A DNA stretch of 64,000 nucleotides from Escherichia coli (GTDB lineage: Bacteria; Pseudomonadota; Gammaproteobacteria; Enterobacterales; Enterobacteriaceae), in NCBI RefSeq assembly GCF_003334315.1, contig NZ_QOWR01000007.1. The stretch is one strand, 5' to 3'. The translations under genes and the position numbers were made by a program. Numbering within the stretch: the stretch's first letter is position 1; each line of letters begins with the position of its first letter. Under the pieces are notes generated by a model, which ran no database searches, was not told the origin of the DNA, and saw only the letters and a program-made list of their open reading frames with translations. Shown in pieces: positions 1-30,821 of the stretch.

Positions 1-59
1 ATCGAACCAAGGACACGGGGATTTTCAATCCCCTGCTCTACCGACTGAGCTATCCGGGC
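1..59 (-). tRNA. pheU: tRNA-Phe (GAA), 5' 59 nt only; 3' end lies beyond the left window edge
   Basis: Reverse complement of 1-59 reads GCCCGGATAGCTCAGTCGGTAGAGCAGGGGATTGAAAATCCCCGTGTCCTTGGTTCGAT, the canonical E. coli tRNA-Phe with GAA anticodon; truncated by the window boundary. Confidence 0.85.
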
Positions 60-2475: not shown

Positions 2476-2789
2476 GAGAGGTAATCTGTGTCTCCGTGTG
2501 TAACAGGTAAAACCAGAAGTTCCGGGGTTTGATATGGATGATGAGACTTCAGGCATTCCAGCAGTGCCTGCTGGTGAGATACGGTAGTTTTTAAAATCAT
2601 CTGCACTTCGTATTCTTGCTCCAGCTTACCTTCCCAGTAATAGAGAGAGGTAGCGCCGGGGATCAAGGTCGCGCAGGCCGCCAGTTTTTCCGCCAGCACT
2701 TTGGCGGCTAAATCCTGGGCTGTCGCTTCATCTGGTGCCGTACATAGCACCACGACAGACGCGGTATTCGAACTTTTTTCATCAAGCAT
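2451..2789 (-). CDS. cutA: Divalent-cation tolerance protein CutA (112 aa)
   Basis: ORF 2451-2795, start ATG 2789 ([25 protein letters not shown]...); 3' end overlaps the dsbD start by 25 nt, consistent with a cutA-dsbD operon. Confidence 0.9.
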
Positions 2790-2904
2790 AAACACCTCGC
2801 AAGAACAGATGGAACCGCAAGAGAGAGGTCACTATACAACGGACGGGGGAAGGATGTTAGTCGGCGGGAAAGAAAGCGGGGCGTGAACGCCCCGCGATTG
2901 GTCA

Positions 2905-4206
2905 TTACAGCATGAAGCTACCCAGCACGAAGCCGAAGCAAACGGCCAGGGCAACACCCAGAGTACCCGGGATGAAGAACGGATGGTTGAAGACGAATTT
3001 ACCGATACGGGTAGTACCCGTGTCATCCATCTGTACCGCAGCAACCAGCGTCGGATAGGTCGGCAGAATGAACAGACCAGACACCGCAGCGAAAGAAGCA
3101 ACAGCGGTCAGCGGAGAAACGTTCAGTGCCAGAGCCATCGGCATCAGTGCTTTTGCGGTTGCAGCCTGAGAGTACAGCAGAGCAGAAGCAAAGAAGAAGA
3201 TGACGGCCAGCAGCCACGGATGACCCTGAATCACTTCACCAGCGGTATCTTTGATCCAGTCGATGTTGTTGGAAACGAAAGTATCGCCCAGCCACGCAAC
3301 ACCCAGGATACAAATACAGGCGCTCATACCTGCTTTGAAGGTGCTGGAGTTGAGGATGTTGTCGGTATCGACTTTACAGATAACGGTGGTCAGAGTTGCA
3401 ACGCTGAGCATGATGATCAGGATTGCGTTGGTGGTGTTCATCAGCGGTTTTTCAACCAGACCCATGCTTGGGCTGTTGATGATTGCATAGATAACCACGC
3501 CAACTACGCCCAGCAGGAACAGCCAGACGGACGTTTTTGCACCGGATTTGATTTCAATCTGCTTTTCACCGCGCAGTTCAACCAGGCCCTCTTCCAGACG
3601 CTTGCGATAAATCGGATCGTCAGAGAGTTTGGAGTTGAACAGCATAGTGACCAGGAAGGACATCACCAGAACCGCCAGCAGGGTGGACGGGATGACCACG
3701 GAGAGCAGATGGAGGTAGCTGATGCCATGACCTTCCATCACGGAAGACATGTAAACCACTGCCGCTGAGATTGGCGATGCGGTGATCGCAATCTGCGCGG
3801 ATACCACTGCAGTAGACAGCGGACGGCAAGGTTTAACGCCTTGTTCCTTCGCAACTTCAGCGATAACTGGCAGTGTCGCCAGAGAGATGTTGCCAGTACC
3901 AGCAAAAATAGTCAGGAAATAGGTCACGATCGGTGCGAGGATCGTGATGTATTTCGGGTTACGGCGCAGCAGCTTTTCTGTCTGATGAACCAGATAGTCC
4001 AGACCGCCAGCAACCTGCATGGCAGAAATAGCGGCGATAACCGCCATGATAATGGAAATGACATCGAACGGGATGTTACCGGGTTTAACGCCAATAGCGG
4101 CAAGAACCAGCACCCCCAATCCGCCTGCAAAACCAATACCTATTCCCCCCAATCTGGCGCCCAAGAAGATCGCCAGCAAAACTATGATGAGTTCTACAAC
4201 TAGCAT
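2905..4206 (-). CDS. dcuA: Anaerobic C4-dicarboxylate transporter DcuA (433 aa)
   Basis: Full-length polytopic membrane ORF matching DcuA; located directly downstream of aspA as in the aspA-dcuA operon. Confidence 0.95.
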   Translation of the reverse strand: MLVVELIIVLLAIFLGARLGGIGIGFAGGLGVLVLAAIGVKPGNIPFDVISIIMAVIAAISAMQVAGGLDYLVHQTEKLLRRNPKYITILAPIVTYFLTIFAGTGNISLATLPVIAEVAKEQGVKPCRPLSTAVVSAQIAITASPISAAVVYMSSVMEGHGISYLHLLSVVIPSTLLAVLVMSFLVTMLFNSKLSDDPIYRKRLEEGLVELRGEKQIEIKSGAKTSVWLFLLGVVGVVIYAIINSPSMGLVEKPLMNTTNAILIIMLSVATLTTVICKVDTDNILNSSTFKAGMSACICILGVAWLGDTFVSNNIDWIKDTAGEVIQGHPWLLAVIFFFASALLYSQAATAKALMPMALALNVSPLTAVASFAAVSGLFILPTYPTLVAAVQMDDTGTTRIGKFVFNHPFFIPGTLGVALAVCFGFVLGSFML

Positions 4207-11657: not shown

Positions 11658-11920
11658 GTAGGTTCTCCCTAACCATTTCTCAATTAAATAATTAATTTTA
11701 ATTTATAAGCCAGATAAATGGGCTTGGTAGTAATAGTTGTTAAAATAACATAAATAGCCGTGCTCACTCTATATAAACAGAAAAGAAAGGTTAATTATTG
11801 GTGTTAGCTATATAAAAAGTAACAACAGCAATGCATATGAATAATTAAAGGTTATGCAACGGGCAAAGATTAAACTTCCCAGTTTAATGACAGGTTGCTG
11901 TACTTGCGTTTGTTGCTCTT

Positions 11921-12020
<100 letters not shown>

Positions 12021-12051
12021 ATTTTAATGTTTGACTTCCCTGTTTAATCAG

Positions 12052-13080
12052 TTACTGCTGGCGTAGCTGGAGATCCAGCGGCGTTTTGCTGGGTTCGCCG
12101 CCAATTTCTCGCGCCAGTTTCGGCACCAGATATCCGGACACCAGTGTCAGCAACTCACGCATAATCTGCCGTGCTTCGTCATCACTCACCATAAAATGCG
12201 CCGCGCCCTGTACTTTATCGAGCACATGCAGGTAATACGGCATCACGCCGGCATCGAACAACGCATTACTCAGGTTTGCCAGCGTTTGTGCGTTATCGTT
12301 CACACCACGTAACAGAACGCTCTGGTTCAGCAAAGTAACGCCCGCCCGGCGCAACTTAGCCATCGCCTGACGGAATGTTTCATATATCTCATTGGCATGG
12401 TTGATGTGATTCACCAGCAAGATTTGCAGCGTAGAATGTGAAAAGCGTTCAACCAGCGCATCTGTGATGCGTGCCGGGATCACAATCGGCAGACGACTGT
12501 GAATCCGCAGACGTTTGATATGCGGGATGGCTTCCAGTTGTGTGAGCAACCAGTCCAGCTCGTGATCTTTCGCCATCAGCGGATCGCCGCCGGAGAAAAT
12601 CATCTCGTCCAGTTCCGGATGCGCAGCAACATACTCAAGTGCAGTTTGCCAGTTACGCTTGTTGCCCTGATTTTCGGCATAAGGGAAGTGGCGACGGAAG
12701 CAATAACGGCAATTTACCGCGCAGCCGCCTTTGACCAGCAAAAGCGCCCGGTTGTGGTATTTATGCAACAAACCAGGCACTACGCTGTGCTGTTCTTCCA
12801 GCGGGTCGGTGGAGAATCCGGGCGCGATGGCAAACTCATCTTGCGAGGTAAGTACCTGACGCAAAAGCGGATCGTCCGGATTGCCTTTCTCCATGCGATC
12901 GATAAATGAGCGGGGCACACGCAGGGCAAACAGCTTTTTGGCGTTGCGTCCGGCCAACAGTTTTTCGTCCGCGTCTATATTCAAAAGACGCAGAAGTTCA
13001 TCAGGATCGGTCACAACATCGGCAAGTTGCGTTAACCAATCTTCTCTGGATGGGGTATTTAGGGTTACAATATGCGCCAT
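12052..13080 (-). CDS. epmB: EF-P lysine 2,3-aminomutase-like radical SAM enzyme EpmB (342 aa)
   Basis: Full-length ORF with radical-SAM CxxxCxxC motif (CAVNCRYC); divergent from efp. Confidence 0.95.
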   Translation of the reverse strand: MAHIVTLNTPSREDWLTQLADVVTDPDELLRLLNIDADEKLLAGRNAKKLFALRVPRSFIDRMEKGNPDDPLLRQVLTSQDEFAIAPGFSTDPLEEQHSVVPGLLHKYHNRALLLVKGGCAVNCRYCFRRHFPYAENQGNKRNWQTALEYVAAHPELDEMIFSGGDPLMAKDHELDWLLTQLEAIPHIKRLRIHSRLPIVIPARITDALVERFSHSTLQILLVNHINHANEIYETFRQAMAKLRRAGVTLLNQSVLLRGVNDNAQTLANLSNALFDAGVMPYYLHVLDKVQGAAHFMVSDDEARQIMRELLTLVSGYLVPKLAREIGGEPSKTPLDLQLRQQ

Positions 13081-13121
13081 TTTGTGGCTTAGCTACCAAT
13101 TAACAAATTTCAGAGGGCCTT

Positions 13122-13688
13122 ATGGCAACGTACTATAGCAACGATTTTCGTGCTGGTCTTAAAATCATGTTAGACGGCGAACCTTACGCGGTTGAAGCGA
13201 GTGAATTCGTAAAACCGGGTAAAGGCCAGGCATTTGCTCGCGTTAAACTGCGTCGTCTGCTGACCGGTACTCGCGTAGAAAAAACCTTCAAATCTACTGA
13301 TTCCGCTGAAGGCGCTGATGTTGTCGATATGAACCTGACTTACCTGTACAACGACGGTGAGTTCTGGCACTTCATGAACAACGAAACTTTCGAGCAGCTG
13401 TCTGCTGACGCAAAAGCAATTGGCGACAACGCTAAATGGCTGCTGGATCAGGCAGAGTGTATCGTAACTCTGTGGAATGGTCAGCCGATCTCCGTTACTC
13501 CGCCGAACTTCGTTGAACTGGAAATCGTTGATACCGATCCGGGCCTGAAAGGTGATACCGCAGGTACTGGCGGCAAACCGGCTACCCTGTCTACTGGCGC
13601 TGTGGTTAAAGTTCCGCTGTTTGTACAAATCGGCGAAGTCATCAAAGTGGATACCCGCTCTGGTGAATACGTCTCTCGCGTTAAGTAA
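13122..13688 (+). CDS. efp: Elongation factor P (188 aa)
   Basis: [47 protein letters not shown]..., including the modified-lysine loop KPGKGQA. Confidence 0.97.
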
Positions 13689-13739
13689 TGCGGTTGTGGT
13701 GCGGCCTGCAGGCTGCACCATCACTTATTCAGGTCAGAG

Positions 13740-13865
13740 ATGATGAAACGCCTTATCGTTCTTGTTTTGCTTGCCAGCACGCTGCTCACGGGCTGTAACA
13801 CCGCTCGCGGTTTCGGCGAAGACATCAAACATCTCGGCAACTCCATCTCCCGCGCTGCCAGCTAA
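13740..13865 (+). CDS. ecnA: Entericidin A lipoprotein (antidote), 41 aa
   Basis: Hand-translated: [41 protein letters not shown]; lipobox LTGC; below the ORF-track size cutoff. Confidence 0.85.
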
Positions 13866-13975
13866 TTTTTCTTCTCTTCCGAAAAATCATCAGATTTCCA
13901 TCATTTTTGGTGATGTTGTCTATTATTAATTTGCTATAGGCAAACATAAATAACATTACCTAAAAGGAAGACGTT

Positions 13976-14122
13976 ATGGTGAAGAAGACAATTGCAGCGA
14001 TCTTTTCTGTTCTGGTGCTTTCAACAGTATTAACTGCCTGCAACACCACGCGTGGCGTTGGTGAAGACATTTCTGATGGCGGTAACGCGATTTCTGGCGC
14101 AGCAACGAAAGCGCAGCAATAA
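13976..14122 (+). CDS. ecnB: Entericidin B bacteriolytic lipoprotein, 48 aa
   Basis: Hand-translated: [48 protein letters not shown]; AAGGAAG Shine-Dalgarno 6 nt upstream; paralogous to ecnA. Confidence 0.85.
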
Positions 14123-14234
14123 GCAATAACGGTACGACAGCTGTGTCGTGCCGTTTGTTTTTTCTGTGATAGTCATAAAGGTAATAGTTGAAATTCCCCT
14201 GCCACCTGGCAAAATATCCGTTCAACCATCAGCT

Positions 14235-14279
14235 TTGCAGGACGACCTGCAAACGCCTCTTTTCACCGGGGACGGCCCC
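14235..14279 (+). ncRNA. Guanidine-II riboswitch (mini-ykkC) in the gdx/sugE leader
   Basis: Two GC-stem hairpins each capped by an ACGR tetraloop: GCAGG-ACGA-CCTGC (14237-14250) and GGGG-ACGG-CCCC (14268-14279), 17 nt apart and 19 nt upstream of the gdx start; the defining mini-ykkC architecture. Confidence 0.7.
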
Positions 14280-14297
14280 AATTCTCCGGAGCCTGAT

Positions 14298-14615
14298 ATG
14301 TCCTGGATTATCTTAGTTATTGCTGGTCTGCTGGAAGTGGTATGGGCCGTTGGCCTGAAATATACCCACGGCTTTAGTCGTTTGACGCCGAGTGTTATTA
14401 CTGTGACGGCGATGATTGTCAGTATGGCGCTACTTGCCTGGGCGATGAAATCGTTACCAGTAGGGACGGCTTATGCCGTGTGGACGGGTATTGGCGCAGT
14501 CGGCGCGGCCATCACCGGCATTGTACTGCTCGGTGAGTCCGCTAACCCGATGCGCCTGGCGAGTCTGGCGTTAATCGTATTGGGGATTATTGGTCTGAAA
14601 CTCAGCACTCAATAA
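14298..14615 (+). CDS. gdx: Guanidinium exporter Gdx / SugE, SMR family (105 aa)
   Basis: ORF 14148-14615 trimmed to ATG 14298 ([26 protein letters not shown]...); four-helix SMR protein; the upstream in-frame extension is occupied by the riboswitch. Confidence 0.93.
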
Positions 14616-15145
14616 CTACCGGGCTGCTGTACCCAAATAAACTTACTGACATCAAACCCTTCCCGGGTCGCGACTGCCAGCATCTCCTGTTTCACTTCGT
14701 CAGAAATGGTTGGCGTGCGGGAGAGTATCCACAGGTAGTCGCGGTCCGGGCCGCAAACCAGCGCATGGCGGTATTCCCGATCGAGTGCAATAACGTTATA
14801 ACCGCCATAGAAAGGACCAAAGAATGACACTTTCAGCGCAGCGCGAGTTGGTGCGCCGGTAAAGTACGCTTTCCCTTCACTCTGCTGCCACATTCCTCTG
14901 TCAGGGTTATAGCCTTTATTAATGACATTCAGGCCGCCGTCATCACGCAGGCTGTATGTTGCGGTGACTTTTTCCAGTCCACGTTCAAAGCGGTGATCAA
15001 AACGGGCAATCTCATACCAGGTACCGAGATAGCGTTTAGCGTCGAAATTATTCACTACGGTCACGCCACGCGGCGGCGTAGGAGAACTGCAGGCAACGAC
15101 CAGAAATGCAGCTGTCGCTGCGGCAACGAGAGGGAGCAGGCGCAT
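14609..15145 (-). CDS. blc: Outer-membrane lipocalin Blc (178 aa)
   Basis: [50 protein letters not shown]..., lipobox VVAC and lipocalin GTWYEIA motif; 3' end overlaps the gdx stop by 7 nt (convergent). Confidence 0.93.
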
Positions 15146-29226: not shown

Positions 29227-29302
<76 letters not shown>

Positions 29303-29338: not shown

Positions 29339-29414
<76 letters not shown>

Positions 29415-29683
29415 AATTCTTCTCTCAATAAAATATCCACAGCGACGCGATGCGTTATTGCTGGTTTTTGTTGTCTCTGACAAACTCTTGTAAACAGAGT
29501 TATCCACAGCCTCAGGCTGTAATCTTAATTTCAAAGAAACTTCGCACGGTGAATAGTATTTTTTTAACCTATTGATAGATAAGTTAAAAATTAAGATTCC
29601 GTTTTGTCGAGTCGATCACTTGACGATTTTATTCGTCTTGAATTGCAATGCGTTTTTATTTTTATTCACAAGCTGTGGATGAA

Positions 29684-30821
29684 TCAGGCGTCACGCGGTA
29701 ACCCTTTTTCAATCACCCGAACCAGACGCTGTTTTTTCGGCAATTGCACTTCGACTATGCACGCATTTCGTCTCTCTATTTGCTGCGCAATCGCCCACGC
29801 TATGTGCTCATCGAGAAGTGGGTGCTCACCTTTACGACTTTCCAGCGCTGTCAAAATCGTTTCATCCCAAGGGGCATTGCCTAATGCTACGGCGATATTA
29901 CGCAGCCAACGCAGGTGACCAATACGACGAATCGCCGATCCTTCCGTGACTTTTAAAAACTTCTCTTCGCTCCAGGCGAATAACTCAATGAGTTCCGGTG
30001 CGTGTAGCGGCTTACGCGGGCTGAAATCCTCTTCTGTGGTGAGTTGTGAATAGCGATTCCACGGGCAGATAAGCTGGCAGTCATCGCAACCGTAAATACG
30101 GTTTCCCATTAACGGTCGCAACTCTTCCGGGATCGCCCCTTCAAGTTCGATGGTGAGATAAGAGATACAGCGGCGAGCATCGACGGTATATGGCTCGACG
30201 ATGGCACCGGTCGGGCAAATCGTCATACAGGCCACGCATTTACCACATCCTTCCTCGACTGGTTGATCCACGGGCAGAGGAATATCGACCAGCAATTCGC
30301 CTAAAAAGAAGAACGAACCGGCCTCGCGATTGAGGATAAGTGAGTGCTTACCTGTCCAGCCGAGCCCAGCTTTTTCAGCTAACGGGCGCTCGAGAATAGG
30401 CGCAGAATCGACAAACGGTCTAAAATTCAGCGAAACACAATGTTGCTGAATCATCTCGCCCAGCTTTTTGAGTCGGTTGCGCAGAAGTTTGTGATAGTCA
30501 CGGCCCAGCGCATAACGGCTAACATAGCCGAGTTTGGGGTTTTTCAGCGTGCTGGCAAATGCGGCGTTAGCAGGAAGGTAATTCATCCGCACGCTGATCA
30601 CGCGCAGCGTACCGGGCAATAACTCATGGGGGCGAGCGCGCAGCATACCGTGACGCGCCATCCAGTCCATTTCGCCGTGGTATTGTTTGTCCAGCCATGC
30701 TTGCAGTTTGGGCTCGGACTCGCTGAGATCGGTATCGGTAATACCTACCTGCTGAAAGCCCAGTTCCAGCCCCCACTGTTTAATTTTTTGCGCTAACTGA
30801 TTGAGATCGAGGGGCTCTGAC

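Follow-up and report, generated by a model that had tools for sequence, protein, structure and literature searches.

Do the two very short open reading frames (ORFs) that lie between efp and gdx on the Escherichia coli chromosome encode real proteins and, if so, do these proteins form the bacteriolytic peptide and antidote that their annotation makes of them? The question is raised here by a stretch of 64,000 nucleotides of E. coli DNA (the window), a chromosome segment equivalent to the one that runs from pheU to rplI in K-12. Neither ORF appears in the first ORF list of the window, because that listing defaults to products of 60 amino acids or more. When it was re-run with a minimum of 20 amino acids, both ORFs were recovered (Table 1), just where the first-pass annotation had placed a paralogous lipoprotein pair, ecnA and ecnB, filling the gap between efp and gdx and escaping the cutoff.

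Table 1. Coordinates of the features discussed in the text. Positions are those of the window unless a separate locus (L005, L007 or L008) is named.
Feature	Position	Strand	Description
tRNA cut by the window edge	1-59	-	pheU in K-12; known feature
REP/BIME repeat	11912-12026		in the yjeJ-epmB gap
efp	13122-13688		upstream neighbour
Stem-loop	13692-13725	+	GGTTGTGGTGCGGCC-TGCA-GGCTGCACCATCAC; directly after the efp stop codon
ecnA	13740-13865	+	entericidin A prolipoprotein, 41 aa; ATG ORF; RefSeq CDS with identical coordinates
ecnA-ecnB spacer	13866-13975	+	AT-rich, 110 bp, 29% G+C; ecnB control region
-10 element	13920-13926	+	CTATTAT, sigma-S type; from the spacer sequence
Second -10-like element	13932-13940	+	TGCTATAGG; matches the published promoter-proximal pause element
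Shine-Dalgarno sequence	13964-13970	+	AAGGAAG, 5 nt upstream of the ecnB start codon
ecnB	13976-14122	+	entericidin B prolipoprotein, 48 aa; ATG ORF; RefSeq CDS with identical coordinates
Predicted MicA pairing site	13977-14007	+	ecnB codons 1-11 with MicA nt 1-28; RNAduplex
Intrinsic terminator of ecnB	14128-14165	+	12-bp stem AACGGTACGACA-GCTG-TGTCGTGCCGTT, then TGTTTTTTCT; terminator scan
Guanidine-II (mini-ykkC) riboswitch	14234-14280	+	50.4 bits (gathering score 32); upstream of gdx/sugE
gdx/sugE	14299-14615		downstream neighbour
Two tandem tRNA genes	29227-29299, 29339-29411	+	Rfam
yjeV	29648-29701	+	17 aa (MRFYFYSQAVDESGVTR); curated K-12 gene, identical sequence
RpsF leader	61792-61876	+	110 bits; upstream of rpsF; known feature
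GerE-family regulator gene, Salmonella	L005, 2678-3265	-	between ecnB and sugE
GerE-family regulator gene, Cronobacter	L007, 2688-3293	-	between ecnB and sugE
GerE-family regulator gene, Lelliottia	L008, 2688-3287	-	between ecnB and sugE

Identity and conservation of ecnA and ecnB

The two ORFs are almost certainly the long-known ecnA and ecnB of E. coli, genes that encode lipoproteins of the entericidin family and are separate expression units. EcnA matched the NCBIfam equivalog model NF007319 over residues 1-41 of 41 (114.9 bits, cut-off 86) and EcnB the equivalog model NF007487 over residues 1-48 of 48 (121.9 bits, cut-off 94), and EcnB was also matched by Pfam PF08085 (E = 5.9e-07). Compared with each other, EcnA and EcnB show 55% identity (E = 4e-14), in agreement with the proposed paralogy. 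The curated K-12 record carries the same genes as b4410 (ecnA) and b4411 (ecnB), with the same lengths, neighbours and coordinates relative to efp and gdx. Between 13686 and 14298, K-12 differs from the window by five bases, one of them coding (13850, in ecnA), whereas several animal isolates of E. coli are 100% identical to the window over 13000-14700. In the PGAP annotation of a genome with 100% identity, ecnA and ecnB have the same coordinates. We met no counter-evidence to this identity; both genes are already known and annotated in reference genomes, and there is nothing biologically new about them.

The locus is part of the core chromosome of the species. A 1.7-kb query around ecnA-ecnB found a match in all 5,426 complete E. 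coli genomes, and the ecnA-ecnB locus itself was present in 5,425 of them, on the chromosome in 5,433 of 5,436 places. At least 80% of the query was covered in 5,415 genomes; one of the approximately ten with lower coverage, IAI39, was looked at and is described below. A database search for EcnB returned 228 homologues across the Enterobacteriaceae, most of them 48 amino acids long and, among the 120 listed, 79-100% identical. Citrobacter is presumably a further carrier of the locus. The gene order efp-ecnA-ecnB-...-sugE-blc is kept in Salmonella, Klebsiella aerogenes, Cronobacter and Lelliottia, and the loci of Salmonella, Cronobacter and Lelliottia share with E. coli the motif of the mature peptides and, among the control signals discussed below, the -10 elements of the promoter, the site for MicA and the stem of the terminator. 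They differ in the length of EcnA, which has 43-44 amino acids in these genera and 41 in E. coli.

Across the five genera, variable alignment columns are concentrated at third codon positions (positions 1/2/3: 20/14/37 for ecnA and 13/7/37 for ecnB), and codon alignments gave dN/dS values of 0.12-0.27 for ecnA and 0.02-0.13 for ecnB. Judged from these alignments, ecnA and ecnB are real genes under purifying selection. Translation, on whose presence the first-pass annotation had made its case depend, has been seen for ecnB: mass spectrometry finds up to ~70,000 copies of EcnB in a cell; the protein is among the most abundant E. coli small proteins and among those most regularly seen by this method (PMC12529367). 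EcnA goes unmentioned in the same paper and was explicitly undetected in one proteomic study (PMC3686733), and we found no direct evidence of EcnA translation in the literature examined. As mature EcnA yields only very short tryptic peptides, its non-detection is weak negative evidence, and conservation is the main argument for ecnA. That the two ORFs are chance ORFs of an intergenic gap is hardly conceivable: both are short, and as many as 35 ORFs of at least 20 amino acids overlap 12800-14800, but their profile scores lie above the curated thresholds, purifying selection and a common gene order are seen across the genera compared, and EcnB has been detected as a protein.

The lipoprotein signal prediction that had been suggested as a check on both peptides found a lipobox with its Cys in each. 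EcnA has a signal peptide of residues 1-18 with the lipobox LTGC (Cys19, codon 13794-13796), and EcnB one of residues 1-21 with the lipobox LTAC (Cys22, codon 14039-14041); both carry the lipobox pattern used for membership in the entericidin family, [LVI][ASTVI][GAS]C. When a K/R n-region, a hydrophobic core and a lipobox-Cys were together taken to define a lipoprotein signal, just two of the 355 ORFs of 30-60 amino acids in all six frames of the window had one, namely ecnA and ecnB. The mature parts open with a shared motif, C-N-T-x-R-G-x-G-E-D-I, which is invariant in both paralogues and in all five genera.

Bacterial lipoproteins are processed by Lgt, LspA and Lnt and then sorted by the Lol system according to the +2 rule. 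Processing by the three enzymes would give EcnA and EcnB a triacylated Cys with a polar, Gly-rich tail, in mature peptides of 23 and 27 amino acids, respectively. Since the residue at +2 is Asn and not Asp, the +2 rule predicts that the Lol system would carry both to the outer membrane. No entry of the PDB matched the EcnB sequence at E <= 1. For EcnB, lipidation and envelope location are asserted by UniProt curation, as quoted in PMC12529367.

Separate control of the two genes

The presence of a Shine-Dalgarno sequence of its own and of a 110-bp upstream spacer had been taken as a sign that ecnB is regulated separately from ecnA. Both features are found in the sequence, and published work agrees with their interpretation. 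The ecnB promoter is sigma-38-dependent and poorly recognised by the sigma-70 holoenzyme, OmpR sites overlap it and OmpR represses, and the initially transcribed region contains a -10-like pause element, with a pause at +17/+18 (PMC5389655). In the spacer, the CTATTAT element (as CTATnnT) is preserved in each of the five genera and the TGCTATAGG element (as GCTATA) in four of the five, K. aerogenes being the one that does not have it. From the published description, we infer that ecnB transcription starts near 13932-13934. A scan of the ecnA-ecnB spacer for sigma-70 promoters found none, a result that does not count against the ecnB promoter because it is expected for a sigma-S promoter without a -35 element.

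At the RNA level, MicA represses ecnB mRNA (PMC3551931). The predicted duplex of MicA with the first codons of ecnB has an energy of -24.2 kcal/mol; none of 500 shuffles reached so low a value (mean -12.2), and among 576 windows of equal length it ranks in the lowest 1.6%. The core of the duplex is also present in Salmonella, K. aerogenes, Cronobacter and Lelliottia (-19 to -23 kcal/mol). The stretch of ecnB that encodes the signal peptide (13976-14041) is nearly invariant across the five genera, and that of ecnA (13740-13796) is free to vary in both sequence and length in the same genera. The coincidence of the conserved ecnB stretch with the MicA pairing site suggests that the constraint acts on the RNA as well as on the protein.

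Downstream, the transcription unit is closed by a strong intrinsic terminator with a fold of -21.4 kcal/mol, whose stem (ACGGTACG/CGTACCGT) is conserved in the five genera and which stands between ecnB and the riboswitch and gene of gdx. The guanidine-II riboswitch takes up most of the 176-bp ecnB-gdx gap. A GTG ORF at 14148-14615, which runs through this riboswitch, does not mark the real start of gdx. In Salmonella, Cronobacter and Lelliottia, a convergent GerE-family regulator gene, presumably ecnR, lies in this interval; it is absent from 14123-14298 of the E. coli window and from the K. aerogenes locus (L006). Its absence suggests that part of the regulation of the locus has been lost in E. 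coli.

The stem-loop that follows the efp stop codon (-24.4 kcal/mol for the RNA fold of 13686-13745) is kept in the five genera with changes on both arms, as aligned by eye, and resembles an efp terminator. Its T-tract is weak in E. coli, and the terminator scan omits it because it has no T-run. As ecnA starts 51 bp behind efp, and the hairpin has no good T-tract, read-through from efp is plausible and may, judging from the sequence, be how ecnA is reached. Pairing with the anti-Shine-Dalgarno sequence amounts to -5.6 kcal/mol for ecnB versus -3.2 for the best site upstream of ecnA.

Reported expression changes are discordant between the two genes. An inhibitor of LolCDE raised ecnB 7-13-fold and did not induce ecnA (PMC5105897), while in bovine faeces ecnA was upregulated without ecnB in one O157 strain (PMC5854682). 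In E. coli IAI39, an IS1 element (2748-3445 of locus L009) is inserted in the ecnA-ecnB spacer at about position 13913 of the window, a short way upstream of the -10 element of ecnB, and leaves both genes intact. Together with the sigma-38 promoter and its OmpR sites, with MicA, with the terminator and with this IS1, the discordant responses bear out the earlier suggestion of separate ecnB regulation and support the view that ecnA and ecnB are separately regulated expression units. Having its own sigma-S promoter, OmpR control, strong Shine-Dalgarno sequence, MicA site and terminator, ecnB therefore appears to be a member of the stationary-phase and envelope-stress regulon. In the mechanism that we propose, ecnB would belong to the sigma-S and envelope-stress genes and be held down by OmpR and by the sigma-E-dependent MicA, and its product would be a very abundant lipoprotein; ecnA, with its weak ribosome-binding site, would be expressed far less, and independently of ecnB.

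Short genes elsewhere in the window

The first-pass annotation had also warned that other genes of fewer than 60 codons might lie in the remaining gaps, and had pointed to 11658-12051 and 56383-56736. The general warning was borne out by yjeV, which is the only other curated K-12 gene below 60 amino acids in the window, but the two gaps named were not where it lies, and the curated K-12 annotation has no gene in either of them. In the first gap, the only ATG ORF with a Shine-Dalgarno-like sequence (11854-11994, 46 amino acids) was rejected, since the C-terminal half of its product is the translation of a REP/BIME repeat. A further reason for the rejection is that this gap, which holds the repeat and E. 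coli-specific AT-rich DNA, has no equivalent in Salmonella, Klebsiella, Cronobacter or Lelliottia. The REP/BIME repeat explains the length of the yjeJ-epmB gap. A sub-threshold match to naRNA4 was found at 11862-11951 (43.6 bits, gathering score 59.5), with a REP consensus at 11921. The repeat recurs at ~10.6-10.7 kb of the window and in the K-12 rnr-rlmB and aidB-yjfN spacers. The second gap is the divergent intergenic control region of ulaG and ulaA; as candidate small genes it offered only TTG or GTG ORFs of 20-36 amino acids, none of them annotated in K-12, and these were rejected.

Regarding yjeV, it is located just after the tRNA-Gly cluster, and its K-12 copy shares sequence with queG at the 3' end of the latter. 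For the cluster itself, Rfam models detected two tandem tRNA genes, where K-12 has three copies of tRNA-Gly(GCC) (glyV, glyX and glyY), a tandem copy-number difference. The RpsF leader and the tRNA at the window edge are known features (Table 1).

The toxin and antidote labels

The pair had been described at first as the chromosomal module of a bacteriolytic peptide and its antidote. As a historical name this holds, and PGAP indeed calls the two genes "lipoprotein toxin / antitoxin" in the annotated E. coli genomes examined; as a settled mechanism it does not, because EcnB is abundant, EcnA has escaped detection and cells survive without ecnA. In our reading, EcnA and EcnB are stress-regulated envelope lipoproteins, of which EcnB is harmful only in excess, and they do not constitute a classical addiction module. 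More tentatively, the names toxin and antitoxin could be a misnomer altogether: EcnB would be a benign and highly abundant sigma-S and envelope-stress lipoprotein of the outer membrane or of vesicles, lysis an artefact of over-expression, and EcnA not an antidote but a paralogue present at low level. This possibility is compatible with the abundance of EcnB, the lack of detection of EcnA, the viable ecnA mutant, the core synteny, the separate regulation of the two genes and the polar, Gly-rich nature of the peptides.

It is rather unlikely, we think, that the pair is a true chromosomal toxin-antitoxin or programmed-death module, in which EcnB would be a membrane-lytic lipopeptide that, if EcnA did not neutralise it, would kill the cells making it when they are in stationary phase and osmolarity is high, and which could additionally stabilise DNA by post-segregational killing. 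The annotation of K-12 and that of PGAP speak for it ("bacteriolytic entericidin B", "antidote"), and so does the over-expression work of Bishop et al. 1998, from which the toxin and antidote names stem and in which, according to PMC7296081, over-production of EcnB causes lysis and ecnA supplied in cis counters this effect. An EcnB homologue of Enterobacter C6-6 is also reported to be bacteriolytic (cited in PMC7296081). At the level of the peptides, the helical hydrophobic moments of mature EcnA (0.59) and EcnB (0.41) are comparable with those of melittin, magainin and delta-lysin and so fall in the range of known lytic peptides. In other properties, however, the mature peptides are unlike melittin, magainin or TisB, as they are polar (mean hydrophobicity below 0), Gly-rich (three Gly in EcnA and five in EcnB) and near neutral or anionic (net charge +1 and -1, respectively).

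The physiological data argue against such a module as well. Cells hold EcnB in the numbers given above without being killed (PMC12529367), while EcnA was undetected (PMC3686733); the Keio collection contains a viable ecnA deletion, and Atu8019, a homologue, neither lyses cells nor forms pores (both PMC7296081). Nor does the locus have the architecture of an addiction module. Tight co-transcription is lacking and the two genes respond to different signals (PMC5389655, PMC5105897, PMC5854682); the promoter elements and Shine-Dalgarno sequence in the spacer, the IS1 of IAI39 and the discordant responses are not those of one tightly coupled unit. The distribution is core and syntenic, neither patchy nor mobile, as seen from the E. 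coli genomes counted above (5,425/5,426) and from the same neighbours in four other genera. Our doubt about the toxin-antitoxin label thus arises because EcnB is abundant, the ecnA mutant viable, co-expression loose, synteny core and the peptides polar.

Among established modules, entericidin resembles Hok/Sok and TisB/IstR in that a small membrane-associated peptide is reported to be toxic when over-produced and in that a small RNA (MicA) acts on the mRNA of the "toxin". In contrast to these systems, EcnA and EcnB are predicted to be exported lipoproteins and not hydrophobic inner-membrane helices. Further differences set the locus apart from both type I and classical type II modules: the antidote proposed is a paralogous protein that is regulated separately, the locus belongs to the core genome and keeps its neighbours, cells without the antidote gene survive, and healthy cells contain plenty of the toxin.

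A last possibility is that the proteins are directed outwards, as weapons or docking factors that would be released, for instance on outer-membrane vesicles, and act on other bacteria, with EcnA providing self-immunity or being a second variant. EcnB homologues do occur in vesicles of several Gram-negative species, and Agrobacterium Atu8019, likewise a small entericidin-family lipoprotein with a lipobox, occurs in the envelope and in vesicles, where it is exposed at the surface and serves in vesicle docking (PMC7296081); the same paper cites a report of a secreted Enterobacter entericidin active against Flavobacterium. We nevertheless consider an outward role highly doubtful for the E. coli proteins, as nothing in the window supports it, no export or immunity genes lie nearby, and neither surface exposure of E. 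coli EcnB nor its release in an active form is reported in the literature examined. Atu8019 differs from the pair, moreover, in being a single gene without an EcnA partner, with a product for which surface exposure, a role in vesicle docking and a lack of lytic activity have been shown (PMC7296081).

For gene finding, the locus is a calibration point: a cut-off of 60 amino acids hides real, conserved and highly expressed genes, and filtering for a lipobox or for conservation picks them out cleanly.
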